Assembly (NCBI GenBank): GCA_041666915.1
Contig: JBAYFZ010000001.1
Location: 137,086-201,085 of the forward strand
Length of the DNA: 64,000 bases
Direction: 5' to 3'
Source of the DNA: Minisyncoccota bacterium
GTDB taxonomy: Bacteria > Patescibacteriota > Minisyncoccia > Phycocordibacterales > PALSA-1337
Under the pieces are notes generated by a model. The model saw only the letters and a program-made list of their open reading frames with translations, did not search any database and was not told the origin of the DNA. A program made the position numbers and the translations under genes. Shown piece by piece: positions 17,297 to 43,014 of this stretch. The first letter of the stretch is position 1, and every line of letters begins with the position of its first letter.

Positions 17297-17389
17297 GTCA
17301 TTCCCGCGAAGGCGGGAATCCAGGATTATTACGAATCAATAGTCCATATTTTGCGGTAACCATGGATTCCCGCCTTCGCGGGAATGACA
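17297..17389. mobile_element. MITE-like element, copy A. Terminal inverted repeats GTCATTCCCGCGAAGGCGGGAATCC / GGATTCCCGCCTTCGCGGGAATGAC, with internal core CAGGATTATTACGAATCAATA…GGTAACCATGG.
   Basis: About 25-bp perfect TIRs. Four related copies in the window (B 29054..29199, C 32030..32106, D 42893..43014). No coding capacity. Confidence 0.8.
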
Positions 17390-17395
17390 ACGCAA

Positions 17396-17430
17396 GAAAT
17401 TAGTAATTAAAAATTAGAAATTCTCTTCAT
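17396..17430 (-). repeat. Repeat family 2, inverted copy (AAGAAATTAGTAATTAAAAATTAGAAATTC). Together with 17088..17125 it brackets a ~340-bp repeat-rich intergenic segment containing MITE copy A.
   Basis: Reverse-complement match to 17088..17125. Confidence 0.65.
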
Positions 17431-18176
17431 ATCCAACTTCTTATCAAAGCCTCCGTTTCTTCTGGACCTTTTACTGAAATACAATCTACACCAGTTGTCT
17501 TGGCAGGATAATCGTTACCACCATAGAATAGGGCATCACCAACAAATAAAATATCATCAACGGATAGTTTCAGATATTGCTCTAGTTTGCGGATACCGTA
17601 AGCCTTATTCACTCCTTTTCTAGTTATATCTACTGATGTAGCACCACCGACTCTAATATCAAATTCTGGAATCTTTGGCATCAAAAGTGAAGCGATATAT
17701 TCACGCTTCTTTCTGGTTGGATCCCAAGCATATTTCAGTTCTACGGGAGCTTTTTGTCCAAGAGCAGAAAAAGTGATTTGTGAACCACGATCTTCTATGA
17801 GATCGCCGTAGACAACGGCAGGTTTTTCGTAAGCAGAACTATTTAAGATCAAGTTCAAAGCAGTCATAATCTTAGCTTTTTCTTTTTGTTCTAAATTTTC
17901 CGCATATTGTTCTTGCCAATCTCCTTTCCAGACATAAAGTTTTGTACCAGAAGTCGGTAAGAGCAAAAGATTACCGTAATTTTCTGAAGCACTAGGTATT
18001 TTGCTTATAAACTGTGTTTGAAATTGAGGGTAACCACCACCGGAAATTATTGCAACTTTTGTCGTGACTAAAAGTTTGCTTATAAGATCGGCCATAACTG
18101 GTTCAATAGGAGATTTACTTTTTGTTAAAGTACCATCAAGGTCAAATATCACTAGTTTTTTGGAAAAGTCTGACAT
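17427..18176 (-). CDS. HAD-superfamily hydrolase, eukaryotic-type phosphomannomutase (PMM)-like.
   Basis: N-terminal …VIFDLDGTLT… HAD motif I. Overall length and motif spacing (…GGGY…, …FVGDAL…GGNDY…) resemble the PMM/HAD-IIB family. Confidence 0.65.
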   Translation of the reverse strand: MSDFSKKLVIFDLDGTLTKSKSPIEPVMADLISKLLVTTKVAIISGGGYPQFQTQFISKIPSASENYGNLLLLPTSGTKLYVWKGDWQEQYAENLEQKEKAKIMTALNLILNSSAYEKPAVVYGDLIEDRGSQITFSALGQKAPVELKYAWDPTRKKREYIASLLMPKIPEFDIRVGGATSVDITRKGVNKAYGIRKLEQYLKLSVDDILFVGDALFYGGNDYPAKTTGVDCISVKGPEETEALIRSWI

Positions 18177-18179
18177 ATT

Positions 18180-20063
18180 TTAGATTTCAAGCATTCGTAA
18201 GAGAGCGGATACTTTTACTGTGGCAACACCGGTGACCAAATCGGCTGCACCGTAATATATATAAGCATTTGTTCCTCGGACTGTTAGTCCGCAAGGGAAG
18301 ACTACGTTTGCGACTATTCCTTTGTGTTCATATTCAGCTTCAGGCTCAAATAATGGAATAGCTGTTCGGGCTTTGACAATGGTAGGGTCTTCTAAATCCA
18401 GCAAGACTGCACCAACGCGATATGTCGTACTCCAAGATACGCCATGGTATAGGAGAAGCCAACCAGCTTTTGTTTTGATGGGTGGTGTAGAAATACCGAC
18501 TTTGCCACCGTCCCACATGCCACGACGTGGAGAAATAATCTCAATACATTGGGTTATTTTTTCTTTTGTAAAATCTAAAGAAGAGACGAAGTCAGCGCAT
18601 ATACTTTCGTTGACTCTATGAAATATCATGTAACCTCCTTTAACTTTTTCTGGCAAAATAGTGGAATCTTTGTTGGCTATAGAAGGTGGAGAGATAACTT
18701 CTGGATTGGACCATCCCGCCCAACGCTTTTTCAGGAAATCATTAGTAGATATTGAACTGATAGCTACTCTAGGTGTAACGCCGTCATAACCGGTATATGT
18801 CATGTAAAGGCGTTTATCTATCTCTACAATTCTAGGGTCTTCACAACCCAATGTTTCAAATCCGGCTCGTGGGAAATATATGGGTTTATCTGATCTTTCG
18901 TCTATTGAAAAACCATCGGATGAACAAGCATAACCAATTGTAGAAATATTGTTGGCTGAAACAGCTCTATAAAGAATATGAGTCTTATTGTCTAATTCAA
19001 TAGCCGCTGGGTTGAGAGTACCTCTAGCTTCCCAAAGCATTTCTGGTCGTGGAGATAGGATAGGGTTACCTGGAAAACGAGTTATGTTGGAACCACGGTC
19101 TTTGTCGGTAATACTCTTTAGGAGATTGTCCAAAGGGATTTTTGCCATGGCACAATGTGTATCGGCGCCACCGTAGTAGATTTCAAAATGATTGTCACGG
19201 ATAAGTGAACCAGAAGGGAATATGACATGTCCTACTTGCCCAACTTCTTCATAATATGTCTCTGGTGCCATGAAAGGGCCCTTTGTCCTACCGATAATAT
19301 GACGAGGATTGTCTTTGTCTAGAAGGAGGACTTCAATACCAAAGACTTGATCGGATCTTCCGTATCTCTGAATATGTGAATACAAAACCAACCAGCCTTT
19401 GTCTGTCTTTATAGGAGCGGCACCTAGCTCTATATGGTCATCTGGAAGTCTGGAGACGTGGAGTTTATGAGCCTCAAGATTTTCATACCAAGCGTTCCAG
19501 TATTCTGGTGACCACATATCTTCTGGTTTATCAAATTCTGCGTAGCAAATGAAGGAAGGTTTACGATCAGTGTTTACGGTTAGGAGTGCTGCGATTTTGC
19601 CGTTTATCTTTTCTGGGAATAATGCCATGGCTTTGGCATTGAATGGTGTGACCAAATGTTTTTCGGTTATGGTATCCAGATCTTTTGAAAGAGCAACTGC
19701 AACCTTGATAGTTTCAGCTGAAAATGGGTAACCTCCTAAAGCGGTATAGAATATGTAGTATGTATCACCAAGTTTTGTGACGCGAGGATCTTCACAACCG
19801 TAGAAATCAAATTCACGATCTGGTGAGACGAGAATTTTGCGATCTTCAAAATGGTGTCCATCTTTGGAAATACCTCTTCCAATAACAGAAGTTTGTACAT
19901 GAGGTTGGCGGAGCAAGTCTGGTTCAGACATGGCTCTGTAAACCAAGATAGTATTTTTACCCTTTACAATAGGAGAACCGTTGAAAGCGGCGGCAGCTTC
20001 CCATGGGTGTTCCTTTATTGGTGACAAGATAGGATTATGTTCTGACCTTGTTAATGTAAACAT
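18180..20063 (-). CDS. Tandem-domain glycoside hydrolase family 130 protein (two GH130 beta-mannoside phosphorylase-like domains).
   Basis: The GH130/DUF377 signature appears twice (…HNPILSPIKEHPWEAAAAFNGSP…LVYRA… and …GNPILSPRPEMLWEARGTLNPAAI…ILYRA…). Length of 627 aa. Confidence 0.75.
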   Translation of the reverse strand: MFTLTRSEHNPILSPIKEHPWEAAAAFNGSPIVKGKNTILVYRAMSEPDLLRQPHVQTSVIGRGISKDGHHFEDRKILVSPDREFDFYGCEDPRVTKLGDTYYIFYTALGGYPFSAETIKVAVALSKDLDTITEKHLVTPFNAKAMALFPEKINGKIAALLTVNTDRKPSFICYAEFDKPEDMWSPEYWNAWYENLEAHKLHVSRLPDDHIELGAAPIKTDKGWLVLYSHIQRYGRSDQVFGIEVLLLDKDNPRHIIGRTKGPFMAPETYYEEVGQVGHVIFPSGSLIRDNHFEIYYGGADTHCAMAKIPLDNLLKSITDKDRGSNITRFPGNPILSPRPEMLWEARGTLNPAAIELDNKTHILYRAVSANNISTIGYACSSDGFSIDERSDKPIYFPRAGFETLGCEDPRIVEIDKRLYMTYTGYDGVTPRVAISSISTNDFLKKRWAGWSNPEVISPPSIANKDSTILPEKVKGGYMIFHRVNESICADFVSSLDFTKEKITQCIEIISPRRGMWDGGKVGISTPPIKTKAGWLLLYHGVSWSTTYRVGAVLLDLEDPTIVKARTAIPLFEPEAEYEHKGIVANVVFPCGLTVRGTNAYIYYGAADLVTGVATVKVSALLRMLEI

Positions 20064-20089
20064 TTTTTTAAATAATCAATAACCAAGAC

Positions 20090-21202
20090 TTAACTAACTC
20101 TTCCATAACTCACCAACCATTCTAATAATTTCTTCATCGGTGTCTCTGCAATACAAACATGTTTATCGCCACCACCGTAATAAATCATCAAATTTTCTCC
20201 TATAACTACTGCTCCTGATGCGTATACAACTCCTGGTTTGCCGTCATTCTCATAGTGAGCATCTGGTTCAAGGATTGAATGAGGTGAACGATACAGTACT
20301 TTTGTCGGATCATTCAGATCTAAGATCATCGCACCAACTTTATATTTGTTTGGGTCAGCTCGGTCCATGGCGTGATAGAGGAGTAACCAACCAAGCTCGG
20401 TCTTGATAGGTGGAGGACCAGCGCCACGTACCCAGTTGTCCCAAAAACCTTTTCTACCTCCTCGAGGAGCACTACTCTTGATGAATTTTGTATCACCGAG
20501 AGCATCTAGACTGTCTACGTAATCAACTAAAATATTTGGAGTGATACCGTGTAGTATTGCAAACTTACCATGGATTTTTTCAGGGAAAATAAGCCAGTTT
20601 TTATTGACCTGTCTTGGTGGAGAGATAAGACATGGTCTTCTCCAATTCCACTTACCTTTTTTGAGATCTTCCAATAAGATTGAGGTTAGACCTATTCTAA
20701 CTGAACTCCAACCTTCAAAAGCTACATAAGTCATGTATACACGACCGTCTATGGTGACAGCACGAGGATCTTCTGAACCACCCCAACCACCACCAGAAGT
20801 ATAAAAAGCAGGGCAGTATTTTTTTGGTCCAGTGACTTTTTCGGCGTCGGGCATTCCGTATCCAGGAAGAGGTTCAAAAACAGGGTATGAAGATCTGACA
20901 TTGAAATCTTTACCGTTTTCACTTGAGGAGTGACCTACACGTGATATACCATCAGCACCTATGGCTCGATAGAGAAGATGAACGATACCTCGATCATCTT
21001 TTATAGCAGCTGGGTTGAAAGTTCCACCATGTTCCCATTCACGTACGAGTTGAGGGGAAAGGATAGGGTTTGCGTGATGACGGTCTAGTTTGTATTGGGG
21101 TTTTAACTTCTTGTAGCTAATAGTTGCAAAACGTGCGATAGCCAAAGCTAAAGCAACAAAGAGGAGGGCTATTAGGGCTAAAATTAAAGAAGGTTGCATC
21201 AT
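20090..21202 (-). CDS. GH130-family protein (beta-1,4-mannooligosaccharide/mannosylglucose phosphorylase-like) with an N-terminal TM anchor.
   Basis: …HANPILSPQLVREWEHGGTFNPAAIKDDRGIVHLLYRAIG… plus the C-terminal conserved Asp/Glu-rich blades. Confidence 0.75.
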   Translation of the reverse strand: MMQPSLILALIALLFVALALAIARFATISYKKLKPQYKLDRHHANPILSPQLVREWEHGGTFNPAAIKDDRGIVHLLYRAIGADGISRVGHSSSENGKDFNVRSSYPVFEPLPGYGMPDAEKVTGPKKYCPAFYTSGGGWGGSEDPRAVTIDGRVYMTYVAFEGWSSVRIGLTSILLEDLKKGKWNWRRPCLISPPRQVNKNWLIFPEKIHGKFAILHGITPNILVDYVDSLDALGDTKFIKSSAPRGGRKGFWDNWVRGAGPPPIKTELGWLLLYHAMDRADPNKYKVGAMILDLNDPTKVLYRSPHSILEPDAHYENDGKPGVVYASGAVVIGENLMIYYGGGDKHVCIAETPMKKLLEWLVSYGRVS

Positions 21203-21225
21203 ACTTAAATGTACTATTTTACTTA

Positions 21226-21582
21226 TTATTTACGGCCGTACTTATCCTCTAGACGAACAATATCTTTTTCGTCAAATTCTCCAAAAGCTAATTCCAATAA
21301 CACTAAATTTTCTGTTCCACCATGTAAACGGTGTTGTATTTCTCTGGGAACAAAACAATCCATTCCGCCTTTGAGTTCAATTTTTTCTCCGTTTATCTCT
21401 GCACTACCATTTCCAGACACAATCCTCCAATATTCGTCACGGTTGTGATGATACTGCAGACTTAAAGATTCTCCAGGAAAGACGGTGATAATCTTAACCA
21501 TTGATGGTCCATCCCTAGTAATCCATAGTTCTTCTCCCCATGGTCTCTTTTCTTGGAACGGTTTAGGAGGTCCTATTTGCAT
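21226..21582 (-). CDS. Cupin-domain protein, resembling a mannose-6-phosphate isomerase type II C-terminal cupin.
   Basis: …SLSLQYHHNRDEYWRIVSGNGSAEINGEKI… (QxH…E…W cupin motif 1 and the H of motif 2). Confidence 0.6.
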   Translation of the reverse strand: MQIGPPKPFQEKRPWGEELWITRDGPSMVKIITVFPGESLSLQYHHNRDEYWRIVSGNGSAEINGEKIELKGGMDCFVPREIQHRLHGGTENLVLLELAFGEFDEKDIVRLEDKYGRK

Positions 21583-21637
21583 AGATAGGAGAATTATACT
21601 ATAAAATCAACATATTTTATGTAAAAACTGTGTATAA

Positions 21638-22333
21638 CTATGAAGAAAATCTCTTTTTATCAGCTGGGAAAAGTTGTAAAGCAATATGATATATAGCGTA
21701 GGTGATGAAGAAGGCAGAAAGTACGTCTATGGAGTAATGTAAATGACCAAGTAAAACTATTATTCCAAAAAATACGGAAGAGATTATGCAAAATACCCTC
21801 AAACGGAAATTATCCCAAAAAATGAGAGCGCTCAAGAAGGGTAGACCTGTATGACCAGAGAAAAACAAGTCTCCACCAGAACTAAATATGTAAAAATCTA
21901 GGTTTTTGAAAAGATTGAAAGAATCCATGTCTATACGATCTGGAAATGGCCCTATGTGTGTCAGTGACATGAATACAGATCTAACTACTGTAAATAAAGC
22001 TATACTTTTTAGCCAGAAAGGTAGTTTTTTGGGATTTAAAGCACAGTATATACAAAGAATAACCCAGAATATGATAGGTGCGTAGATAAAAAGTTCGTCT
22101 ACGTTTACTACTGGAATGTTTGATAGGATTATGTCGTTTACGAAATTGCTAGCTTTATTTGTTGCAAAAGTCCCAGCAGAAATATTAATCATCAAACTTC
22201 CAAATAGTAATAAGAAAGCTATGATTAATGAAGTGACATACTCCTTATCTCTGAAATGTGTCAGGTATTCTTGAACCAAAGTTCTTTTTTCCATATTGAA
22301 GTTTATTGTAACTCGGATGTCAGAAAATGTCAC
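21638..22333 (-). CDS. PAP2-like (PAP2_C / sphingomyelin-synthase-like) integral membrane protein.
   Basis: …FSGHTGLPF… and …GHLHYSIDVLSAFFI… (SGH and H…D phosphatase motifs) in a 6-TM context. Confidence 0.5.
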   Translation of the reverse strand: MTFSDIRVTINFNMEKRTLVQEYLTHFRDKEYVTSLIIAFLLLFGSLMINISAGTFATNKASNFVNDIILSNIPVVNVDELFIYAPIIFWVILCIYCALNPKKLPFWLKSIALFTVVRSVFMSLTHIGPFPDRIDMDSFNLFKNLDFYIFSSGGDLFFSGHTGLPFLSALIFWDNFRLRVFCIISSVFFGIIVLLGHLHYSIDVLSAFFITYAIYHIALQLFPADKKRFSS

Positions 22334-22376
22334 TACGGAAGCGAGGCTTCTGTAAAAATTTTGCTCTTTTGCTCAT

Positions 22377-23612: not shown

Positions 23613-23622
23613 AGATAAAATT

Positions 23623-24060: not shown

Positions 24061-24139
24061 TCTTGGATTGTGAATATAAGTTTAGTAACAAAAAATGGAA
24101 GATAGACTTCCATTTTTTGTTTATAAGATTTTTGATGTA

Positions 24140-24738: not shown

Positions 24739-25221
24739 ATGACTGAACTTACAACGGGTGTTTTGTTTCTTATGTCTTCATTGTATGGTTCCGGACAAGC
24801 AGACAATCACGTAGCAAATATTGCTACTGACCACGCTAATTCTGAACAGGAAGCAGTGATGACTACTTCAACAGAAGGACAGATCTTCACAACTACAGAT
24901 CCAAAGGAAATGGAAAAGTATCTTCGCCAAGAATATGCTCTAAGTCCTATCCTAGTTGATATTGCCCGTTGCGAGTCTAACTTCAGACAGTTTGATAAGG
25001 ACGGTAATGTCATTCGTGGAATAGTTGATAAGGCAGATATTGGAGTTATGCAAATTAACGAAAGATATCATGCCGAGACTGCAGTTAAACTTGGAATGGA
25101 TATTCATACCATTCAAGGTAACATTGCTTACGCCAAGCATCTTTATGAGGAACAAGGTTTGAAACCTTGGTCAGCTTCAAAGAAGTGTTGGTCAGTAGGG
25201 AATGCTGTGGCTCTGAAGTAA
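24739..25221 (+). CDS. Lysozyme-like / lytic-transglycosylase-domain protein, secreted.
   Basis: …VDIARCESNFRQFDKDG… (catalytic E-S) and …DIGVMQINERYH… (GLMQ-like), followed by an aromatic-rich C-terminus. Confidence 0.6.
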   Translation: MTELTTGVLFLMSSLYGSGQADNHVANIATDHANSEQEAVMTTSTEGQIFTTTDPKEMEKYLRQEYALSPILVDIARCESNFRQFDKDGNVIRGIVDKADIGVMQINERYHAETAVKLGMDIHTIQGNIAYAKHLYEEQGLKPWSASKKCWSVGNAVALK

Positions 25222-25240
25222 AAATTAGAAATTCTATATA

Positions 25241-27687: not shown

Positions 27688-29037
27688 CTAACCCAACTTC
27701 ATTATCGCCCCATCAATCCTCTTCAAAGTCTCCTCTTTACCCAGAATAAATGCCGAGGTAAAAGGATCTGGTGACTTTTCTTGTCCTGTCAAAGCTACAC
27801 GTAATGGCCAAAGAACATCACCTTTGCCTTTTTCTTCCGCATATCCCCAAAGGGCATTTTTGATGTTTTCAACCGTGAAGTTATTAGGTTTGACCTCGTC
27901 AATTAATTCTCGAACCTTGGTCAAATGTTTACCCGCCTCTTCCCTGCTAGGATTCTTTTTCCAAAGAAGCATGTCAGTTTTGTAATCAGAAATTTCTTTT
28001 ATGAAATTTAATTCACCTCCAAGTTCAAAAAGTTTACTGATCTCGCCAAGAACGGAGATTTTCTCACGCAAGATTGGTTGCAACTTTCCGGCTAGATCCG
28101 ACTTAGCCGAAAGCCATTCTGGTATGAAAGGTTTGGCTATTTCATTGAATTCTTTATCGGATAATTTTGTAATGTATTCTTTGTTGAACCAGTTGAGCTT
28201 TTCTATATCAAATATAGCTCCAGCCTTCTGGACTCTTTCTAGAGAAAATTGTTTGAGGATCTCTTCACGACTGAAAATCTCTTTGTCATCATTTGGATGC
28301 CAACCGAGCATGGCTAGATAATTGACTACTGCTTCTGGTAGATATCCTCTGGAACGATATTCGGTAATAGGTAAAGCACCTTTGCGTTTGGAAAGTTTGG
28401 TTCTGTCTGGTGAAAGTAGTAGTGGAATATGAGCGTACTCAGGGATTGGTAAACCCAAAGCTTCAAAAAGAAGAATATGCCTAGGTGTATTGGAAATATG
28501 ATCTTCACCTCTGACAATATGAGTTATGCCAGATTCTGCATCATCTATGACGACCACGAGATGAAAGACTGGCTCGGTCATACTTCTTGCAATGATAAAA
28601 TCGCCAAGCTCGGTAGTATCAAATTCTATTGGACCACGTATCATATCCACAAATTTAACTTTCTTATTTGGATTTCGGAATCGGATAACTTCACTGCGCA
28701 TTTTGGAGGCTTCTTCGGCAGAAAGACCTTCTCTTGGGGTTTCTTTGGAAATATAAGCTTTACCGGAGTCTATGAGTTTTTGAATGTATTTTTGATATAC
28801 GGCTGTCCTATCAGATTGTCTGCAAAAATCGTCGTATTCCAATCCTAGCCACTTTAAACTATCAATAATATTATCCTCATATTCTTTCTTTGAACGTTCC
28901 TTGTCGGTGTCTTCTATGCGTAGGATGAATTTGCCGTCATTTTGGCGGGCGTAAATGTAAGAGAAAAGAGCAGTTCTATAATTGCCGGCATGTAAATATC
29001 CGGTTGGTGATGGGGCGAAACGGGTGATGATTTTCAT
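27688..29037 (-). CDS. gltX: Glutamyl-tRNA synthetase.
   Basis: Class I HIGH (…FAPSPTGYLHAGNYRTAL…) and KMSKS (KLSKRKG) motifs. Overall GluRS architecture. Confidence 0.9.
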   Translation of the reverse strand: MKIITRFAPSPTGYLHAGNYRTALFSYIYARQNDGKFILRIEDTDKERSKKEYEDNIIDSLKWLGLEYDDFCRQSDRTAVYQKYIQKLIDSGKAYISKETPREGLSAEEASKMRSEVIRFRNPNKKVKFVDMIRGPIEFDTTELGDFIIARSMTEPVFHLVVVIDDAESGITHIVRGEDHISNTPRHILLFEALGLPIPEYAHIPLLLSPDRTKLSKRKGALPITEYRSRGYLPEAVVNYLAMLGWHPNDDKEIFSREEILKQFSLERVQKAGAIFDIEKLNWFNKEYITKLSDKEFNEIAKPFIPEWLSAKSDLAGKLQPILREKISVLGEISKLFELGGELNFIKEISDYKTDMLLWKKNPSREEAGKHLTKVRELIDEVKPNNFTVENIKNALWGYAEEKGKGDVLWPLRVALTGQEKSPDPFTSAFILGKEETLKRIDGAIMKLG

Positions 29038-29053: not shown

Positions 29054-29199
29054 GTCATTGTCATTCCCGCGAAGGCTTTTTTGTTGTCATTCCCGCGAAG
29101 GCGGGAATCTAGGATTATTACGAGATAATAGTTTATTATAATTATTTGGAAATAGATTTTGTGGTAATATCCTGGATTCCCGCCTTCGCGGGAATGACA
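29054..29199. mobile_element. MITE-like element, copy B. It has an extra partial left-TIR duplicate (29054..29076) and a longer internal core.
   Basis: TIRs GTCATTCCCGCGAAGGCGGGAATCT … GGATTCCCGCCTTCGCGGGAATGACA. Confidence 0.8.
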
Positions 29200-31016: not shown

Positions 31017-31991
31017 CTATTTTTTCAGTATTACCTTGTGTATCGCTTTATAAATATCTTTTTCTCCTAAACCGTAAAGTTCAAGAAGTTCTTCTGATTG
31101 ACCTGATTGACCAAAAACATCTTTGACGCCAACGAATTCTATAGGAGTTGGAAAATGTGTTGAAAGACATTCCGCAACAGCTGAACCCATACCTCCGTGA
31201 ATCTGATGTTCCTCTACGGTAACTATTGCCCCAGTCTTGTGTGCCAGTTTGATGATTGCTTGTTCGTCTAACGGCTTGATAGTAGAAAGATTCATGACAG
31301 TTACGTCTATACCTTCATTGGTTAGTTTCTTTGCCGTCATGAGGGCTTTGTATAGGATCGGGCCAGTGGCAATGATGCCGACGGAAGCGAGGCTTCCGGA
31401 TTTTGAACCATTCTTTTCGTAAACAATCTGTGCTTTACCAATCTTGAAAATAGCTTCTTCATTTGTAATGACAGGACTTTTTTCGCGTACCAATCTCACA
31501 TATGTTGGATCATTAGTTTTGGCAATTTCAATGATAGTTTTCTTAGCTTCAATAGCATCGCAAGGGCTCACAACAACCATTCTTGGAAGCGATCTCATGA
31601 GAGCTATGTCTTCTAGAGCTTGATGACTTCCACCATCTGGACCGACATTCAAACCAGCGTGAGTGCCGATGATCTTCACTGGAAGATTGTTGTAACAGAT
31701 AGTTGTGCGGATCTGTTCCCAATTTCTACCGGGACTAAAAACTGCATATGATGCCATGAATGGGATCTTGCCCATGCTAGCCATGCCGGAAGCTACAGTT
31801 GCTAGATTTTGTTCGGCTACACCAACTTCTATGTATCTTTCAGGAAACTTTTGTTTGAAAGGTAACATGCCGGTTGATTCGGCTAGATCTGCACAGAGAC
31901 CTACTACTTGGGCATTTGCTTCACCAGCTATAACTAGGCCTTCACCGAAGCCTGCGCGCATAGAAGCTAGTTTTTTATTGTCATTTTGCAT
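31017..31991 (-). CDS. Transketolase C-terminal section (pyrimidine-binding and C-terminal domains). The ORF-track N-terminal extension (to 32207) runs through MITE copy C and is probably not translated.
   Basis: Starts MQNDNKKLASMRAGFGEGL…. Homology to the transketolase central and C-terminal domains (…GPDGGSHQALEDIA…). Confidence 0.8.
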   Translation of the reverse strand: MQNDNKKLASMRAGFGEGLVIAGEANAQVVGLCADLAESTGMLPFKQKFPERYIEVGVAEQNLATVASGMASMGKIPFMASYAVFSPGRNWEQIRTTICYNNLPVKIIGTHAGLNVGPDGGSHQALEDIALMRSLPRMVVVSPCDAIEAKKTIIEIAKTNDPTYVRLVREKSPVITNEEAIFKIGKAQIVYEKNGSKSGSLASVGIIATGPILYKALMTAKKLTNEGIDVTVMNLSTIKPLDEQAIIKLAHKTGAIVTVEEHQIHGGMGSAVAECLSTHFPTPIEFVGVKDVFGQSGQSEELLELYGLGEKDIYKAIHKVILKK

Positions 31992-32029
31992 AATGTTTTG
32001 TTTGTCATTTACCGTCCCCTCCGAGGATA

Positions 32030-32106
32030 AACTTCGGCGGGAATCCAGGATATTACCAATATATTCACGGGTTAGACACTGGATTCCCGCCTTCGCGGGA
32101 ATGACA
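32030..32106. mobile_element. MITE-like element, copy C. The left TIR is degenerate and the right TIR is intact. It lies between the two transketolase half-genes and supplies the last codons and stop of the N-terminal half (…HSREGGNPVSNP*).
   Basis: CGGCGGGAATCCAGGAT … GGATTCCCGCCTTCGCGGGAATGACA. Confidence 0.7.
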
Positions 32107-32928
32107 CAGTGCAATCTCAATTTCCTCTTTTGTTGTCGGTACTTTTCCATGCCATTCATACTTCCCTTCAAATTCAGGAATTCCTTTTGATGGAATAGTC
32201 TTTGCAATGATAACGGTCGGTTTACCAGAATTCATCTTGGCTGTTTCTATAGCTCTATCAATCTGCAAAAAATCATGCCCATCTATCTCTATAACTTGCC
32301 AACCAAAACTTCGCCATTTTTCTGCTAGAGGATTGAGTGGCATGATTTCATCGGTAGTTCCGCTTATTTGAATGTTATTACGATCTACTATAGCAATGAC
32401 ACTATGGAGTTTTTCTTTGCTTGCGAGCATGATGGCTTCCCAAGAATTACCTTCATCAAGTTCCCCATCGCTCATGAGGCAATAGAATTTTTTTCCAGAA
32501 GTTTTGCCATTGTCTATCCTATCAGCCAAAGCCATGCCTATAGTTTGACCAAGCCCTGAACCGAGTGGGCCAGAAGATGTTTCTAATATTGGTAGCCATT
32601 CTCTATGAGGATGCCCTTGGAGTTTTGAACCGAGTTTACGTAGAGTTTTTAATTCAGAAATTGGAAAATATTTTGCATGCGCGAGAGTTGCATATAAGAC
32701 AGGACAGATGTGACCGTTTGATAATACGACTCGGTCTCGGTATTGCCAATCGGGCTTTTTTGGATCGTGCTTGAGAGCGTAAAAATATAAATAAGTGAAA
32801 ATGTCAGCCATATCTAGCGAGCCAGCGGTATGACCAGACTTGGCTTCAATAAGCATTTCTATGACTGAACGGCGGATTTCCTTGGCTTTCTTTTCAAACA
32901 GAGAAATTTTTGCTTCTGTGAGGGACAT
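32065..32928 (-). CDS. Transketolase N-terminal section (thiamine-diphosphate-binding domain). Its C-terminal tail is encoded by the MITE.
   Basis: …GHTAGSLDMADIF…, …GHPH…, …SDGELDEGNSWEA… TPP-binding motifs. Confidence 0.85.
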   Translation of the reverse strand: MSLTEAKISLFEKKAKEIRRSVIEMLIEAKSGHTAGSLDMADIFTYLYFYALKHDPKKPDWQYRDRVVLSNGHICPVLYATLAHAKYFPISELKTLRKLGSKLQGHPHREWLPILETSSGPLGSGLGQTIGMALADRIDNGKTSGKKFYCLMSDGELDEGNSWEAIMLASKEKLHSVIAIVDRNNIQISGTTDEIMPLNPLAEKWRSFGWQVIEIDGHDFLQIDRAIETAKMNSGKPTVIIAKTIPSKGIPEFEGKYEWHGKVPTTKEEIEIALCHSREGGNPVSNP

Positions 32929-36218: not shown

Positions 36219-36278
36219 AGTATTATTATACCATTTTTACAGATGTTTTTCCATAATAATTAAGAATTTTTACAGTTT

Positions 36279-37310: not shown

Positions 37311-37478
37311 ATTATGAATATTGTTAGTTAATTGGAATAATTGTATCACGGTCTTGTTGAAATATGCACCCATGTTTTGTGTCTTGTACACAGCCCTGCT
37401 TTGTATAAATTTACCAAAAATTATAGACTTGATACGGAATAATACGAGCACAAAACGTGTTCGAGTCCTTATAATGTT

Positions 37479-37937: not shown

Positions 37938-37954
37938 GGTAAGGTAGAGGTTAT

Positions 37955-39022
37955 TTATTTCACAAGTGCGGCCAAATTTGGTCGCACTTTTTTACACATT
38001 TTTTTAATTAAACTAGGACCTTCATATATGATCCCTGTAATAAGTTGAATGAGATCAGCGCCAGCATCAAATTTTCCTTGTGCTAACTCTGATGACATTA
38101 CTCCACCGACTCCGATAATAGTAAAGCGAGAACCGTAAATCTGTTTGGTTTTCCTTATGAGTTCAGTAGAAAGACTGGCACAAGGTTTGCCAGAAAGACC
38201 GCCATGGTAATCTTTTGGAGCCTCGTCACGATAATCTAGTGAATTGTAATCCTTGTTCAAATTACCAATGATCACGCCCTGTAAACCATGTTTATCAATA
38301 ACTTTAAGTAGAGACTCAAACTGTTCCCAAGGAATATTGATGGGCATTTTTATATAGACAGGCTTTTTGCATGGAATAGTATCAAGCTTGGTCAAAAGCC
38401 TTTCCAATAATTCTGGAGTAGTGAAAGCTTCCCCACCAAAAGCGTTTGGGCATGAGATGTTGATGGTGTAATAGTCGCCGACATTTTCTTCATTTAGTCT
38501 TTTGAATGAATACAAATAATCATTCATTCCAGATTCTATATCGGCTGTTTCGGAACAGTTGGTTTTGGCGATGGAGATGCCAGTGACAAAAGGCAGAGCA
38601 CTTCTTATTAGTTGTACTTTTTTTAACCTCTTGATCACCGCATCAACTCCGTCATTTCTCAAACCTTTATTAACAATGATACTTTGAGATTTTGGTAACC
38701 TAGTCAAACGAGGTTTTGGATTACCTTCGCAAGGTTTGGCTGTGACCGAACCGACTTCTTCCCCACCGAGTCCTATTTCTGGAAGAATTTTGCCCAAATG
38801 TCCGTTGTAGTCAAAACCAGCAGATAAAAGAAAAGGTGTTCGGTATTTTATACCATCAACAGTTTTAGAAATATCAGGACCATTGTAACCATAGATGAGG
38901 TTGGTAAGTTTGCGGGTCAAACTGTAGTTACCTAGAAATTCACCAACATAAGTCATGAAATCATGAACATCTTCGGGGTCAAATTTGAAGAATATAGGTT
39001 TTAGGATTGATTTATATAACAT
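37955..39022 (-). CDS. pyrD: Dihydroorotate dehydrogenase (class 2-like).
   Basis: …LSAGFDYNGH…, …VNKGLRNDG…, …IIGVGGV… DHODH motifs. Confidence 0.9.
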   Translation of the reverse strand: MLYKSILKPIFFKFDPEDVHDFMTYVGEFLGNYSLTRKLTNLIYGYNGPDISKTVDGIKYRTPFLLSAGFDYNGHLGKILPEIGLGGEEVGSVTAKPCEGNPKPRLTRLPKSQSIIVNKGLRNDGVDAVIKRLKKVQLIRSALPFVTGISIAKTNCSETADIESGMNDYLYSFKRLNEENVGDYYTINISCPNAFGGEAFTTPELLERLLTKLDTIPCKKPVYIKMPINIPWEQFESLLKVIDKHGLQGVIIGNLNKDYNSLDYRDEAPKDYHGGLSGKPCASLSTELIRKTKQIYGSRFTIIGVGGVMSSELAQGKFDAGADLIQLITGIIYEGPSLIKKMCKKVRPNLAALVK

Positions 39023-39093
39023 GGAGATATATTACCATATTCCGACTATGTCGGACCTAGACGAAAAATAGGTTATAATGTAACCAAGTTTTT

Positions 39094-39690
39094 ATGCAAG
39101 AATGGCTCATACAACTTGTCACAGTTCACCCTTACGTTGTTTATGCAATTATAATTGTGACTGCTTGCGCCGAAGGGCCAATCCTGTCACTTATCGGTGG
39201 AGTCTTGATTAAGCTCGGTTATTTCTCTTTTATCCCACTTTATGTGGCTTTGATGGTCGGAGACTTACTTGGTGATGCTCTCTGGTATAATATCGGCCGT
39301 TATTATGGTCATCGTTTCATCAAACGTTTTGGAAAATATTTTGATATTACGGAAGAGTCAGTTATCAAAGTCACTGATATTTTTCATAAATACAAACATC
39401 ACATCCTTTTTATTTCTAAAATAACAAATGGTTTGGGTTTTGCTCTTGTTACTCTCATGACAGCTGGTATGGTTAAGATTCCATTTTGGAGATACATGGC
39501 TATCAATGCTACTGGTCAATTTGTCTGGACAGGATTCTTGATTGGTGTAGGATATTTCTTTGGTAATCTATATGTAACGGTTGAATCTGTTTTGGGAAAA
39601 ATGTTCGTTGTTGCTATGTTTATCTTGGTATTCATTGGATTCCTAAGATACAAGAGGTATTTATCCAAAAAAGCCAAAGCTTTTATATAA
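39094..39690 (+). CDS. DedA/SNARE-associated (VTT-domain) membrane protein.
   Basis: Motif spacing of …GDLLGDALWYNIGRYYG… and …ISKITNGLGFAL… typical of the DedA family. Confidence 0.75.
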   Translation: MQEWLIQLVTVHPYVVYAIIIVTACAEGPILSLIGGVLIKLGYFSFIPLYVALMVGDLLGDALWYNIGRYYGHRFIKRFGKYFDITEESVIKVTDIFHKYKHHILFISKITNGLGFALVTLMTAGMVKIPFWRYMAINATGQFVWTGFLIGVGYFFGNLYVTVESVLGKMFVVAMFILVFIGFLRYKRYLSKKAKAFI

Positions 39691-39703
39691 TCCTGCTTTC
39701 TAT

Positions 39704-40426
39704 ATGCTTTCTATAATAATCCCAACCTATAACGAGGAGAAGTACATCGGCGAAAGCTTAGAGCAATTCAAGCAAAAGCTTACTTTACCTCACGAAATCA
39801 TCGTATCTGATGACAAAAGTACTGACAAAACAGTTGAGATTGCCAAATCTTTTCAGGATGTGACCGTCCTAGTTCCAGAAAAAAAGCATCAAGCTATCGG
39901 AGCAAATAGAAACGAAGGAGCTCGTACAGCTAAAGGTGATTTTTTCGTTTTCATGGATGGAGATAGTAGAATAGAAAATCCTGATAAATTCTTTAGTACG
40001 ATTTTAGAATATTTTGAGGCTAATAAAAATGTAGTGGCTGTGACTACTTATTTGCAAGTTTTGAAAGAATGTGAGACTTTTACCGATCGTTTTATTTATA
40101 TTATTTTCAATTGGACACATGTTTTAAAAAATAATATCTTTCATACTGGCGAAGCTTCTGGCAAATTCCAGATGATTCGTAAGGAAGCTTTTTTGAAAGT
40201 TAACGGTTACCGCGAGGACCTCGTTTCTCGTGAAGATGCAAACATGTTCCAAAGATTGAGTGAAATAGGTAGAACCATCTGTTTATCCAATCTCAGGGTC
40301 TTCCATTATGGCCGTAGAGCGCATAGAATAGGGTGGCCCAAGCTTTTGTATATTTGGATGACCGAAACCTTGTATGTGGCTATAAATGACAGGTCAATAG
40401 CGAAGGAATGGAAAGATGTTAGATAA
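39704..40426 (+). CDS. Family 2 glycosyltransferase.
   Basis: MLSIIIPTYNEE…, …SDDKSTDKT…, DxD (MDGDSR). Confidence 0.8.
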   Translation: MLSIIIPTYNEEKYIGESLEQFKQKLTLPHEIIVSDDKSTDKTVEIAKSFQDVTVLVPEKKHQAIGANRNEGARTAKGDFFVFMDGDSRIENPDKFFSTILEYFEANKNVVAVTTYLQVLKECETFTDRFIYIIFNWTHVLKNNIFHTGEASGKFQMIRKEAFLKVNGYREDLVSREDANMFQRLSEIGRTICLSNLRVFHYGRRAHRIGWPKLLYIWMTETLYVAINDRSIAKEWKDVR

Positions 40427-40456
40427 AAATCCGACTACGGCGACCGAGGCAAAAAC

Positions 40457-41176
40457 ATGAAAATATCAATAGTAATACCAGCTTATAATGAAGAGAAAAA
40501 TATTGCAACGACAATAGAGGCTCTTTTGGCTCAAGATTATAAAGATTATGAGATAATTGTTGTTAATAATGCTAGTACTGATAAAACTTACGAAGTTGCC
40601 AGTAAGTTCCCTGTTAAAGTGGTAACTGAGAATAGGAAGGGACTTCTTTGGGCTCGTGAACGAGGGAGGATTGAAGCCGTCGGAGATATTATTGCTAACA
40701 CTGATGCGGATTGTTTGCCAGATAAAACTTGGTTATCAAATGGTTCTTCATATTTTATAGATGAGAAGATTGCCGCAGTTTCTGGACCATATGATTATTA
40801 TGATGCAGATTGGTTTTTCAGAAAGTCCTCATTGTTTTTTCAAAGTGCTATATATCCTATTGCTAATATGTTTTTCCAATTACCTTTCATTCATCGTGGA
40901 GCAACTATCATAGGTGGTAACAATTTCATACGGGCAAGTGCACTAGAAAAAGCCGGCGGTTATGATACTTCTATTACTTTTTATGGTGAAGATACCGATA
41001 CCGCCAAGCGTGTCTCTGCTCATGGTAAGGTCAAGTTCAGTCCAAGTGTTGTCATGAAGACCTCGGCTCGCCGTTTCAAGGCTGAAGGTAAGTTCAATCT
41101 GATGATGAAATATTGGTATCATTTTTTCAAGCATATTTTGTTTGTTAAGCCGGCAAAGAGGGTGGTGAAAAAGTAA
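40457..41176 (+). CDS. Family 2 glycosyltransferase.
   Basis: MKISIVIPAYNEE…, …NNASTDKT…, DxD (TDADC). Confidence 0.8.
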   Translation: MKISIVIPAYNEEKNIATTIEALLAQDYKDYEIIVVNNASTDKTYEVASKFPVKVVTENRKGLLWARERGRIEAVGDIIANTDADCLPDKTWLSNGSSYFIDEKIAAVSGPYDYYDADWFFRKSSLFFQSAIYPIANMFFQLPFIHRGATIIGGNNFIRASALEKAGGYDTSITFYGEDTDTAKRVSAHGKVKFSPSVVMKTSARRFKAEGKFNLMMKYWYHFFKHILFVKPAKRVVKK

Positions 41177-41295
41177 GTGAGTCTTTTGATTTTGGTTGAG
41201 CGAATTAAAGACTATTAAGATTAGAGGGGGGGTCGCTTTTACTTTTAAAGAAAAGAACGTCCGCACATATTACTCTTTGAAAATTCTCTCTTTCT

Positions 41296-41342
41296 CATAA
41301 AATAAATGTGACGGATTTTCCGTCACATTTATTTTATGAGAA
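41296..41342. other. Perfect 47-nt palindrome (CTCATAAAATAAATGTGACGGA-TTTT-CCGTCACATTTATTTTATGAG).
   Basis: 21-bp stem read directly. Lies between convergent genes, upstream of the terminator at 41390..41420. Confidence 0.7.
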
Positions 41343-41389
41343 AAAAGACTCCCTATCCCCTTCCTTTGAATTTCTTGCATATGAAAAAA

Positions 41390-41420
41390 CGTCGAAAAGT
41401 TCGACGTTTTTTCATTTTTC
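41390..41420. terminator. Bidirectional rho-independent terminator.
   Basis: AAAAAACGTCGAAAAGTTCGACGTTTTTTC. Confidence 0.75.
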
Positions 41421-41528
41421 AGTCTTTTCTGTTAGTCTCTACTTTCCTAGATCCTTATTTGAATTGGAATCTTTCACCTCTTAATTAATTCCATTAAATC
41501 CACCAACCTTTGAATAGGTTTTCAACTA

Positions 41529-42464
41529 TTAATCGGATTTCTTATTTGAATCCTTACCAGAATCACTTTTTGGAGTAGAAGTTGCGTTGTTACCCATATT
41601 TATATTTAACTTCTCCCTTTCCTTATCACCCTTTGTTAGAAGCTTAATAATAGTATTTGCTTCGTTCTTGGCAGAAGTGAGATCTCCATGAGCAACCTTT
41701 ATCTTTGCACGAGCAGACTGTAGAGCCTTCGTAGTAGAAGCCATCATACCTTTGTCTCCTTGATCAGGGATAAGGTTTGCAACATCCGTAATGGCTCCCT
41801 GAGCTTGTATTTGAGCATCAGCAACCTTGGAATTGAACCTTACAAGAGCTTCCCTAGCCGAAGCAATATTTGCCGATGTTATTTGACTTGAAGTTGCCTG
41901 ACTATTCAGACGAGCTTCCAATTTTGAGCTGACTATAGACATCATGCTTACCATTGTGGTTATTCTATCTGCTGACGCAATGATATTCATCTTTGGCATA
42001 AACAAAGCGTAAACGCGATATTTACTAGTTATAGAATCACGAGCTTCTTTTAGTGTCGTCGTTGAATTTGTAGTATCTATCGTGTTTTTAAGTTTGTTGA
42101 GCTCAGCTACAAGTTCGTTGACGTTTGAGGCGATAAAAGATTCATCATTATCGGATAGATTTTTGAATTCCTTAATCCTCTCTTGAAGTTTCTTTAAATC
42201 TTCTATCCTCTTTTCAAGTTCCTTATCAGCCGCTGTTTTGATTCTCTCAATCTTTTTTTCTGCCAATTCCCCCTTTTTTTCTTCAATTTCTTTTTTGTTA
42301 TCTGTTGAGGAAGCTGATCTGGTCTCAATCTCATTCTCAACCTCTTGATCATCTGAAGAAATTTTATTTACACGTCTTTCTTCAGCTGAAACTGAAGATA
42401 TTGTGATAAATAAAGCAAAAACCATAGAACATACTATAAGTGGAATTGTTGTTTTGTTTTTCAT
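41529..42464 (-). CDS. Secreted coiled-coil protein, hypothetical.
   Basis: Signal peptide. Highly charged heptad-rich sequence. No catalytic motif. Confidence 0.55.
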   Translation of the reverse strand: MKNKTTIPLIVCSMVFALFITISSVSAEERRVNKISSDDQEVENEIETRSASSTDNKKEIEEKKGELAEKKIERIKTAADKELEKRIEDLKKLQERIKEFKNLSDNDESFIASNVNELVAELNKLKNTIDTTNSTTTLKEARDSITSKYRVYALFMPKMNIIASADRITTMVSMMSIVSSKLEARLNSQATSSQITSANIASAREALVRFNSKVADAQIQAQGAITDVANLIPDQGDKGMMASTTKALQSARAKIKVAHGDLTSAKNEANTIIKLLTKGDKEREKLNINMGNNATSTPKSDSGKDSNKKSD

Positions 42465-42490
42465 ATTTGTATATTGGTTATGGTTAATAA

Positions 42491-42781
42491 TTATTTTATT
42501 GTCATACCCTGATCAACATTGGCTGCGTCAGCGTTCAAAGCTTCTACTTGTTTACTAAAAGCGTCAAGATCATTTTGTATAGCCGTAGTAGATGTGTCTG
42601 TCTCCGCACTAAGTCCTGTACCTGCTGTGTTAGGTTCTTTTGGTGGTGGAGTTACGACGGTTTCAGTTACTATTGGTGTTGGTTCTACTTTTACTTGCGA
42701 ATTGTTGTACCAAATCCAACCTATTACGATAATAACTAGTATAATCACTAGAGCAATACCCGTTTTTGCTGTTGTTGTCAT
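42491..42781 (-). CDS. Small membrane-anchored protein, hypothetical.
   Basis: N-terminal TM (IALVIILVIIVIGWIWY) followed by a Pro/Thr-rich linker. Confidence 0.5.
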   Translation of the reverse strand: MTTTAKTGIALVIILVIIVIGWIWYNNSQVKVEPTPIVTETVVTPPPKEPNTAGTGLSAETDTSTTAIQNDLDAFSKQVEALNADAANVDQGMTIK

Positions 42782-42892
42782 ATGATTTTTAATTTAAATA
42801 TTAATTGGTAATTCGTGTCACGGAGTTTGACGGTAGTCGTAAAAAACGGCAGTCAAACTCACCTTCATGTATCTTACCACAGTTTTGTTATT

Positions 42893-43014
42893 GTCATTCC
42901 CGCGAAGGCGGGAATCCAGAATTATTACGAATCAATAATCTATATTTTGTGGTAACCATGGATTCCCGGTCCATTCGACACGATTTTGCTAAATCGCCTT
43001 TGCGGGAATGACAC
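42893..43014. mobile_element. MITE-like element, copy D. The right TIR is interrupted by a ~29-nt insertion.
   Basis: GTCATTCCCGCGAAGGCGGGAATCCAGAATTATTACGAATCAATA…GGATTCCCGG[…]TTTGCGGGAATGACA. Confidence 0.8.

Follow-up and report, generated by a model that had tools for sequence, protein, structure and literature searches.

Inverted NTS/SRM hairpin doublets in a Paceibacterota genome and their probable Ssn-type nuclease partner

We have characterized four palindromic elements, named copies A to D, in a 64-kb stretch of DNA (the window) from a Paceibacterota metagenome-assembled genome (MAG). The elements are non-coding, lie in intergenic spacers, and contain six intact arms of 25-28 nt. A search with the 25-nt arm GTCATTCCCGCGAAGGCGGGAATCC at no more than three mismatches returned six matches in the window, five of them exact, where 0.00 were expected from 100 shuffles. 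The dispersed four-copy family described by the initial annotation was thereby upheld, and its shared core was borne out by alignment for copies A, B, and D. The coordinates of the copies also held, except that copy C starts at 32003 and not at 32030. The elements, their parts, and the neighboring genes are as follows.

17296-17389: copy A, whole element
17296-17323, plus strand: left arm of copy A, an intact NTS/SRM hairpin (TGTCATTCCCGCGAAGGCGGGAATCCAG); exact arm match, match to the SRM pattern and to NTS with Y at base 1, 8-bp hairpin
17324-17361, unstranded: spacer of copy A, short-core subfamily (GATTATTACGAATCAATAGTCCATATTTTGCGGTAAC); aligns with copy D and with copies at loci L130, L132, L135, and L140
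17362-17389, minus strand: right arm of copy A, intact; arm match and SRM pattern
16255-17106, plus strand: Peptidase_S11 gene, convergent neighbor of copy A
17427-18176, minus strand: HAD hydrolase gene, convergent neighbor of copy A
29054-29199: copy B, whole element
29054-29084, plus strand: extra partial arm of copy B, GTCATT followed by GTCATTCCCGCGAAGGC and then a T-run
29085-29112, plus strand: left arm of copy B, intact, with a CTAG tail variant; arm match and SRM pattern
29113-29171, unstranded: spacer of copy B, long-core subfamily; aligns with copies at L129, L131 (two copies), L133, L136, and L140_3358
29172-29199, minus strand: right arm of copy B, intact; arm match and SRM pattern
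31017-31991, minus strand: transketolase C-terminal subunit gene, 324 aa, starting 11 nt beyond copy C; gene call in L145
32003-32106: copy C, whole element
32003-32048, plus strand: variant arm of copy C, TGTCATT followed by the 28-nt replacement TACCGTCCCCTCCGAGGATAAACTTCGG and by CGGGAATCCAG
32049-32078, unstranded: spacer of copy C, including the stop codon of the transketolase N-half
32079-32106, minus strand: intact arm of copy C; arm match and SRM pattern; the transketolase N-half reads through it in frame (…IALCHSREGGNPVSNP, then stop)
32065-32928, minus strand: transketolase N-terminal subunit gene, 287 aa, MFA6554054.1; copy C contributes the final 42 nt (32065-32106)
42491-42781, minus strand: gene for a 96-aa hypothetical protein, divergent neighbor of copy D
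42892-43013: copy D, whole element
42892-42919, plus strand: left arm of copy D, intact; arm match and SRM pattern
42920-42956, unstranded: spacer of copy D, assigned by alignment to the short-core subfamily
42957-43013, minus strand: right arm of copy D, with a 28-nt insertion (GTCCATTCGACACGATTTTGCTAAATCG) in the 3' half-stem and one substitution
43151-44530, plus strand: DnaB gene, divergent neighbor of copy D

The arm has the anatomy (T)GTC-ATTCCCGC-GAAG-GCGGGAAT-CCAG, and a single arm by itself forms a hairpin with an 8-bp stem and a 4-nt GAAG loop (-8.9 kcal/mol, z = -4.1). The conserved flanks of this hairpin, 5' YGTC and 3' CCAG, are non-palindromic and give each arm an orientation. 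When the whole elements were folded as single strands and compared with shuffles, z was -10.2 for copy A, -10.4 for B, -4.2 for C, and -8.0 for D, and the hairpin energy of the intact doublets was -35 to -42 kcal/mol. Small ORFs containing CHSREGGNP, VIPAKAGIQ, SFPRRRES, or DSRLRGND cross every copy, and those of the CHSREGGNP type had rightly been recognized as artefacts of reading through the arms.

The SRM pattern, HGTCWYN(0-2)YYVSBRHN(0-5)WNVSBRGN(0-2)RNCYNB, matched the window exactly six times, at the six intact arms, where 0.04 matches were expected from 50 shuffles. The strict Neisseria NTS consensus CGTCATTCCCGCGMAVGCGGGAATCYRG matched none of the window arms, and the same consensus with Y at base 1, which is T here, matched five of the six intact arms; the sixth ends in CCAT. 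On sequence criteria, the window arms are classified as NTS-like members of the SRM and not as strict NTS. The 28-nt motif is the same in Neisseria and in the window save for base 1, and 30 of 31 arms of the window lineage bear a TGTC tag, whereas strict NTS has CGTC. The arms also have the characters of the CGTC-1 REP family (Di Nocera et al., BMC Genomics 2013, PMC3733652), namely the TGTC variant of the tag, an 8-bp stem starting with AT, a 4-nt loop, a CCA tail, and a layout mainly in inverted dimers. In that family too, the CGTC tag is sometimes TGTC, inverted dimers with 20-100-bp spacers predominate, copies are occasionally intragenic, and no transposase is associated. On the other hand, the main account of that survey, which covers five phyla, names no Patescibacteria, and the survey left the partner enzyme unspecified, whereas here a GIY-YIG gene is flanked by the arms. 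The CGTC-1 repeats were equated with Neisseria dRS3 and Rickettsia conorii RPE-6 (PMC3733652), and three published names, SRM/NTS, CGTC-1 REP, and the core of Neisseria dRS3 (with RPE-6), are to be read as names for one motif or its core, as judged from the sequences.

The link to Ssn was reached by finding GIY-YIG ORFs between arms and then consulting the literature on GIY-YIG proteins and dRS3. Ssn is a single-domain GIY-YIG nuclease of about 94 aa; its Neisseria and Wolbachia homologues were shown to bind the folded single-stranded SRM/NTS in one orientation only and to cut the DNA a few nucleotides upstream of it (Chenal et al., Nat Commun 2025, PMC11893778). Cleavage depends most on the three bases that precede the palindrome (PMC11893778). 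In Neisseria, the cutting limits recombination of incoming single-stranded DNA. In our alignments, conservation ends at about -4 upstream of GTC, at the edge of the arm, which agrees with the reported cut a few nucleotides upstream. With a TGTC rather than a CGTC tag, cleavage by the local Ssn is a candidate activity only. Moreover, of the eight arm positions in the window, three hold variant or partial arms to which Ssn may not bind.

Considering how stable the hairpins of the intact doublets are, the elements might instead be structures selected by the host independently of any nuclease, such as terminators, stabilizers of mRNA 3' ends, or binding sites for host proteins. Copy A would suit this role: its two neighboring genes converge on it, as would be expected around a bidirectional terminator. 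However, copy D lies between divergent genes, copy C lies within an operon, and copy B starts 17 nt ahead of gltX (start codon at 29037, minus strand). A promoter and terminator scan of copy B gave nothing above background and called no T-tract terminator, and Rfam at gathering thresholds found only four tRNAs in the window, with no match at the elements. The identity of the motif across phyla and the nuclease gene enclosed by it point instead to protein recognition of DNA, and RNA is not a substrate of SsnA (PMC11893778). We consider host-selected structure improbable as an explanation of the four loci.

Outside the window, the exact 24-mer was found in at least 120 genomes of many phyla, mostly in doublets with the tags outward and with lineage-specific spacers. 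Among 209 arms from the 120 genomes listed, only the Y-GTC…CCAG motif was conserved and the spacer was not, and neighboring arms were paired tag-outward in 65 of 92 cases. The further copies that the initial annotation had proposed to look for also exist, as 12 arm-plus-core matches on other contigs. Doublet cores on a 17.7-kb contig that carries an ssn gene and on contigs of a further metagenome are 88-97% identical to the window cores; for the spacer of copy A, identity to copies on other contigs is 88-96%, and for that of copy B it is up to 94%.

Both core subfamilies, short and long, are found again at separate loci with unrelated flanks, and so are the arm variants, which had been described as variable decay of copies B, C, and D. 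The additional left arm of copy B is indeed present; it is only partial (29054-29076 plus the T-run), and the same arrangement occurs in L133, L140, and L131. The supposedly truncated left end of copy C is in fact a variant arm without the 5' half-stem of the NTS hairpin, and the same type is found at L132 (10575-10690). We rejected a reading of this C-type arm as a ribosome-binding site with a start codon: in the window its ATG is not in frame, and the L132 element lies between convergent genes. The insertion in the right arm of copy D was confirmed, with a length of 28 nt (42969-42996) and not 29, and it is repeated in at least four L140 copies (951-1065, 3358, 5594, and 16099). Since each variant was found at other loci, the variants appear as inherited subfamilies rather than as products of independent decay. 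Here the arms occur mostly as doublets with subfamily-specific spacers and inherited arm variants, an organization outside the analysis of Chenal et al.

The ssn gene is absent from the 64-kb window (tblastn of Ssn proteins; best E = 0.36). Elsewhere, a family of GIY-YIG proteins of about 95 aa is encoded between arms in 5 of the 120 genome loci listed and in 7 of the 120 viral loci listed. One member, P0121 (93 aa), lies between arms at L140 9948-10330 and forms an NTS-ssn-NTS module on the 17.7-kb contig k141_1301268; arms likewise enclose P0122 and P0123, the proteins most closely related to it. P0121 resembles Ssn in its size, its single domain, and its conserved Y, Y, and E. Its residues Y8, Y19, R29, H33, E66, and N85 are invariant, and we infer a 2-residue shift that pairs Y8, Y19, and E66 with Y6, Y17, and E64 of SsnA from N. 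meningitidis. Five sister proteins of P0121 match Pfam PF01541 or align to proteins that match it, and P0121 itself has a precomputed PF01541 assignment. An NCBIfam search with P0121 gave only a sub-threshold match to a group I intron endonuclease, and a PDB search gave only distant UPF0213 GIY-YIG structures. A Paceibacterota GIY-YIG gene at L077 belongs to a different subfamily with no flanking arms and was set aside.

The contig of P0121 and that of the window share both their ENA sample (ERZ27249449) and their JGI sample (3300037810), and they have a second repeat family in common (100% identity over 36 nt). NCBI labels both the window transketolase (MFA6554054) and P0121 (MFA6554732) as Candidatus Paceibacterota, with accessions only 678 apart. 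Based on this co-occurrence, the accession proximity, and the shared repeats, the ssn contig is probably from the same MAG as the window. Tetranucleotide similarity was discarded as a tie between the two, because another Paceibacterota contig, L127, scored equally high.

The architecture of two inverted REP hairpins with a spacer, an oriented 5' tag, and intergenic spread with no target-site duplication (TSD) is also that of REPINs, which are mobilized by a RAYT of the IS200/IS605 type, as in the GTAG-tagged REPs of Pseudomonas and E. coli. The likeness extends to inverted REP doublets as the replicating units, to a partner gene that is present once and bordered by these REPs, and to recognition of a single-stranded hairpin (Bertels & Rainey 2011; Nunvar 2010; Ton-Hoang 2012). 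However, the partner here is a hydrolytic GIY-YIG nuclease instead of an HUH/Y1 transposase, and the tag is (C/T)GTC instead of GTAG. The NTS motif and the nuclease differ very little between phyla, and both also occur on viral contigs, whereas REPINs and RAYTs are, in the accounts cited, mostly vertically inherited. No RAYT or other IS200 gene was flanked by CGTC repeats according to Di Nocera et al. (PMC3733652), and the GIY-YIG family alone was enclosed by arms among the 120 listed loci. Mobilization by a RAYT is accordingly a very doubtful explanation.

The least credible reading, which builds on the MITE-like label of the initial annotation, is a classical MITE in the sense of an internally deleted insertion sequence with 25-bp terminal inverted repeats, moved by cut-and-paste through a DDE-type transposase: the elements are 90-150 bp long and non-coding, several have perfect 25-bp inverted ends, and a protein gene does lie between the same ends elsewhere, but the ends are 8-bp-stem hairpins that fold on themselves and are conserved to the base across many phyla around unrelated interiors, and the enclosed gene is a nuclease. 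The cognate transposase that this reading called for was not found at the loci searched, where only the Ssn-type gene of about 94 aa lay between arms, and all-against-all ORF clustering of the 120 listed loci gave no other gene family between arms and no transposase family. A comparison of 10 lineage and 40 cross-phylum doublets found no direct repeat of at least 5 nt at offsets 0-6, only scattered 2-4-nt matches. In addition, the core of copies A, B, and D is unlike the interior of the ssn-bearing element, and the doublets are therefore not simple deletion derivatives of it.

Copy C lies between the two halves of a split transketolase, as had been noted, and supplies the N-half with its last 13 codons (CHSREGGNPVSNP) and its stop codon (32065-32067, minus strand). 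The best 120 transketolase homologues were all N-halves (120/120, 278-310 aa), and the junction between the halves is empty in the relatives L127, where the genes overlap at ATGCTTAA, and L126. It is occupied in the window and also in L124/L125, with a different spacer there, and a similar C-terminal tail is present on the N-half of a 73%-identical relative. Because the best homologues are all N-halves and the junction of relatives is empty, the split is ancestral and long predates the element. Copy C would have taken the place of the N-half's native 3' end, disrupting the stop/start overlap that ancestrally joined the two halves. In giving in-frame codons to a housekeeping protein, copy C resembles the Rickettsia palindromic elements, which are internal to their proteins, whereas the residues here form the extreme C-terminus with their own stop codon.

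Taken together, we consider it likely that the four loci are inverted NTS/SRM doublets in a Paceibacterota host with a probable ssn gene, copied as units probably via an Ssn-nicked single strand. This is a new host for the known Ssn/NTS system and not a new kind of element, and the NTS-ssn-NTS layout on a contig probably of the same MAG is the layout of that system; its Patescibacteria host belongs to a group that the main text of Chenal et al. (PMC11893778) does not name. Given the inverted, tag-outward placement of the arms, both strands of a doublet would have one cleavable site each, at the 5' side, and Ssn could act on whichever strand becomes exposed in the course of DNA uptake, replication, or repair. 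Whole doublets, with their own spacers and arm variants, would be copied to new intergenic sites, probably by a single-strand intermediate that an Ssn nick starts and host repair or replication completes, and the copying would leave no target duplication. For the host, the doublets would be mostly neutral passengers. By analogy with Neisseria, Ssn cutting at the doublets could limit recombination of incoming single-stranded DNA.

We infer Ssn-driven mobility of the doublets from these comparisons. Against it, Ssn is a hydrolytic nuclease without known strand-transfer activity, and the main text of Chenal et al. demonstrates no transposition of NTS or SRM (PMC11893778). In addition, a comparison of near-identical strains gave no presence/absence polymorphism for copies A, B, and D: the assemblies were 100% identical or broken at the repeat, and one apparent 19-nt indel consisted of N. 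The doublets could instead be copied by recombination or gene conversion. A bolder extension of Ssn-driven copying, which we put forward only tentatively and consider rather unlikely, is that the Patescibacteria doublets form an active REPIN-like population in which Ssn initiates a TSD-free single-strand "nick and copy" transposition, with the motif and nuclease exchanged as a pair between phyla, partly on phage DNA, and with the arm variants as its lineages.

In summary, the identification explains four odd palindromes and the spurious ORFs of the types named above, which contaminate protein databases, and it shows that the "tail" of the transketolase N-half is repeat-derived. It also brings Patescibacteria, with their reduced genomes, into the host range of the Ssn/NTS system. 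As these bacteria are believed to rely on DNA uptake, cleavage of incoming single strands by a nuclease at genomic repeats could be important for them. The comparative evidence that doublets are inherited and copied as TSD-free units bears on how CGTC-type REPs spread without a transposase. If the copying does depend on Ssn, this nuclease would be the long-missing mobilizing enzyme of the CGTC REP superfamily.

We confirmed the four palindromic elements where the initial annotation had placed them: with up to three mismatches allowed, the window holds six copies of the 25-nt arm GTCATTCCCGCGAAGGCGGGAATCC (five exact), and none was expected from 100 dinucleotide-preserving shuffles of the window. 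On the one hand, the inverted arms that had been described as 25-bp terminal inverted repeats are present. On the other hand, each single arm folds as its own hairpin, with the stem ATTCCCGC/GCGGGAAT and the loop GAAG, a point that had been missed. Accordingly, each element is an inverted pair of hairpin repeats with a spacer (a doublet) rather than one long stretch bounded by simple terminal inverted repeats. When folded as single strands, all four copies are much more stable than shuffled controls.

Doublets of the window, with single-strand folding energy, z-score against shuffled controls and gene context
17296-17389, copy A: -38.2 kcal/mol, z = -10.2; convergent genes on both sides
29054-29199, copy B: -42 kcal/mol, z = -10.4; upstream of gltX, whose start is 17 nt away; also downstream of a DUF7282 gene
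32003-32106, copy C: -18.6 kcal/mol, z = -4.2; separates the two transketolase subunit genes
42892-43013, copy D: -35.1 kcal/mol, z = -8.0; divergent pair of a 96-aa ORF and dnaB

As had been proposed, translation through the arms produces ORF artefacts, and spurious small ORFs with CHSREGGNP, VIPAKAGIQ, SFPRRRES or DSRLRGND cross every copy. The convergent genes around copy A are 320 nt apart, and positions 17126-17296 of this spacer hold several unrelated short palindromes, e.g., GTGAATGTAATACACATTCAC and CAGTAGGCGAATCTACTG. In Logan assemblies of SRR6484324, same-strain short-read contigs (L122, L144, L146) break off inside copies A, D and B or at their edges, indicating that doublets break assemblies and that copy numbers are underestimated in fragmented MAGs. 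Four tRNA genes, unrelated to the doublets, lie in a 3-kb part of the window (8393-11400):

8393-8465, minus strand, tRNA gene
10476-10547, minus strand, tRNA gene
11030-11116, plus strand, tRNA gene
11314-11400, plus strand, tRNA gene

CGTC-tagged REPs were described by Di Nocera et al. 2013 (PMC3733652). Their CGTC-1 family has an 8-bp stem starting with AT, a 4-nt loop, a CCA tail and the tag CGTC, often TGTC instead; its repeats are mainly inverted dimers, were equated with Neisseria dRS3 and Rickettsia RPE-6, and were explicitly stated to have no associated transposase. A second paper, Chenal et al. 2025 (PMC11893778), concerns the Neisseria transformation sequence (NTS), a 28-nt motif defined as CGTCATTCCCGCGMAVGCGGGAATCYRG. 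SsnA, a 94-aa single-domain GIY-YIG protein, was shown to bind this motif only as single-stranded DNA and in one orientation only, and to cut upstream of it, a few nucleotides away. The ssnA genes typically have the motif on both sides, the Ssn family is widespread, a degenerate version of the motif is termed the Ssn-related motif (SRM), and in N. meningitidis the system reduces transformation by repeat-carrying DNA. These authors point out the IS-like architecture and hypothesize a domesticated mobile element; the text of their paper contains no transposition experiment. Our literature search found no later publications on the Ssn/NTS system.

The six intact arms, and nothing else in the window, fit the SRM pattern (six matches, 0.04 expected); the NTS consensus fits five of these six once T is allowed at base 1. 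Judged by sequence, the window arms are the published Ssn-bound motif. In a position table of 209 arms, conservation was limited to Y-GTC-ATTCCCGC-GAAG-GCGGGAAT-CCAG, with C (53%) or T (42%) preceding GTC, and the spacer and outer flanks showed none except for a G-poor stretch upstream. The tags, (C/T)GTC at the 5' end, face outward in 65 of 92 neighbouring arm pairs (arms within 400 nt of each other), and spacers are mostly 14-90 nt. Among species-representative genomes, the exact 24-mer of the arm is present in at least 120 stretches, whose hosts among the matches listed include Bacteroidota, all Proteobacteria classes, Desulfobacterota, Myxococcota, Planctomycetota, Nitrospirota, Chloroflexota, Gemmatimonadota, Acidobacteriota, Spirochaetota, Clostridia, Rickettsiales and several Patescibacteria lineages. 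It is also present on at least 120 IMG/VR viral contigs (L147-L266).

Scanning a metagenome collection with the arm plus 12 nt of the window core turned up 12 more matches, spread over six contigs from a single metagenome, bearing out the predicted copies outside the window. The doublets on those contigs are 88-97% identical to A, B and D, spacers included, and their flanking genes do not match those of the window. We listed every arm with its context and aligned 15 copies. Two subfamilies stand out: seven copies, A and D among them, have a short core, and seven others, B among them, have a long core. Copies B, C and D had been regarded as variably decayed; instead, each defect is seen again at other loci whose flanks are unrelated. 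Four further copies on contig L140 share the 28-nt insertion of the right arm of D, the partial arm of B followed by a T-run recurs in L133, L140 and L131, and the odd left arm of C (GTCATT + TACCGTCCYCTCCGAGGATARACTTCGG + CGGGAATCC) recurs in L132. Accordingly, these are inherited variants copied to new sites, and they are the best evidence here for doublets propagating as units. Since the left arm of C is such a variant and not a truncated repeat, copy C begins at 32003 rather than at 32030.

Upstream of GTC, the arms of this lineage carry T at -1 (30 of 31), G or T at -2 (30 of 31) and at -3 (28 of 31), and T or C at -4 (27 of 31), fading beyond. If the reported Ssn cut sets the element edge, this edge would lie at about -4. 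No target-site duplications of at least 5 nt were found at offsets 0-6 in 10 lineage doublets and 40 doublets of other phyla. Three loci next to arms or partial arms (L131 ~1598-1640, L133 ~728-790, L140 ~16215-16260) share the flank GGGAATGAC-AYGCARTGCTATAAT-N7-9-CATG, which holds an outward-facing extended -10-like TGCTATAAT box.

When the stop-to-stop ORFs from all 120 listed genome loci were clustered, the only family between two arms was a protein of ~95 aa, found at five loci of different taxa and assigned by Pfam to the GIY-YIG catalytic domain (E 3e-10 to 4e-17); the cognate transposase that had been anticipated between matching ends was not among these ORFs. Considering also that no target duplication occurs in 50 doublets, a classical MITE with IS-type ends, as initially proposed, fits worse than Ssn-linked hairpin doublets. 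A REPIN driven by a RAYT likewise fits worse, as does a pure terminator or RNA element.

The 64-kb window has no Ssn homologue. One of the contigs with window-like doublets has a 93-aa Ssn-type gene (protein P0121) between arms of a GAAA-loop variant (L134 1048-1430 = L140 9948-10330), and the two closest relatives of P0121 are likewise enclosed by arms. In an alignment with Ssn-type proteins of other phyla, Y8, Y19, R29, H33, E66 and N85 are invariant. The window lies in ENA contig ERZ27249449:k141_1421082 (450,810 bp), and a Logan assembly as well as JGI sample 3300037810 contain identical sequence. P0121 comes from the same ENA and JGI samples; it is labelled Paceibacterota at NCBI (MFA6554732.1), 678 numbers from the N-terminal transketolase half (TK-N) of the window ("MAG: Candidatus Paceibacterota bacterium", MFA6554054.1), and its contig shares with the window a second repeat family at 100% identity over 36 nt. 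Accordingly, the two contigs probably belong to the same MAG, which is not certain.

The homologues of P0121 from named Deltaproteobacteria and Defluviitoga (Thermotogota) MAGs (P0167, P0179) show 71-75% identity over ~93 aa. On this comparison, the cross-phylum identity is far above expectation for vertical descent and parallels the base-perfect DNA motif. A complete arm-ssn-arm module is present on 7 of the 120 listed viral contigs (L161, L175, L186, L192, L203, L220, L236). With the arms on viral contigs, it points to phage or prophage DNA as a vehicle between phyla. In two related Paceibacterota contigs (L140 7879-10330, L137 385-1212), the module adjoins the 3' end of an RNase J/beta-CASP gene; its other neighbour differs (SLT_2 vs ribosomal protein L20), as does the relative orientation. 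Another Paceibacterota genome has a different small GIY-YIG gene (MYYVYILRSLKDRNFYIGSSENL..., L077 4236-4490) without flanking NTS arms; two other GC-rich hairpins (CGTCTGGCATACGCCAGACG, CCCAGCGAATGCTGGGCG) precede it, and these may be another nuclease/hairpin pair.

The second repeat family is AT-rich (core AATTTCTAATTTTTAATT, long form GAATTTCTAATTACTAATTTTTAATTTCTAAGAAA), with five matches in the window vs 0.09 expected and up to 100% identity between the window and the ssn-bearing contig. Inverted copies enclose the intergenic region with copy A, and in L133 copies directly abut an NTS doublet.

17090-17124, plus strand, second-family repeat
17405-17422, minus strand, second-family repeat
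25216-25233, minus strand, second-family repeat
47277-47294, plus strand, second-family repeat
Elsewhere: L131 1618-1735; L134 5370-5484; flanks of L133

Copy C lies between the transketolase halves and, as previously noted, provides the C-terminal tail and stop of the N-terminal half: homologues stop shortly past ...EEIExA(R/L)..., and the window TK-N runs on with CHSREGGNPVSNP*, encoded by copy C. The best 120 TK-N homologues are all N-halves of 278-310 aa, and the source-named ones are labelled Patescibacteria lineages. Therefore, comparison with relatives indicates that the split is ancestral, predates the element and is unconnected with it. The junction consists of overlapping genes (ATGCTTAA) in L127 (TK-N 76% identical to that of the window), a 48-nt spacer without arms in L126 (79%), and, in L124/L125 (73%), a complete doublet of 187 nt whose spacer is different and which is read in the same frame to give the tail ...GCHSREGGNPV. 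This reflects either two separate insertions or one old insertion lost in closer relatives. With the insertion, the window locus has lost the native last codons and the stop/start overlap, and presumably any translational coupling of the subunits.

Published before are the motif and its GIY-YIG partner, as well as the wide distribution and the dimer organisation of the motif. This study adds Paceibacterota as a host, spacer subfamilies that are conserved and have inherited arm variants, a sizeable doublet sample free of target duplications, a transketolase tail of repeat origin in two lineages, and the motif on IMG/VR viral contigs, with the whole NTS-ssn-NTS module in 7 of the 120 listed. Of greater interest is whether repeat copying is actually driven by Ssn. 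Doublet variants are found at multiple sites without target duplications. We consider that each doublet strand would carry one cleavable Ssn site, at its 5' side, and that the repeats would spread when Ssn nicks transiently single-stranded DNA and host functions complete the copying. The doublets would be largely neutral, the transketolase tail being an example of a local effect, and may allow Ssn to fragment incoming homologous single strands, as in Neisseria.
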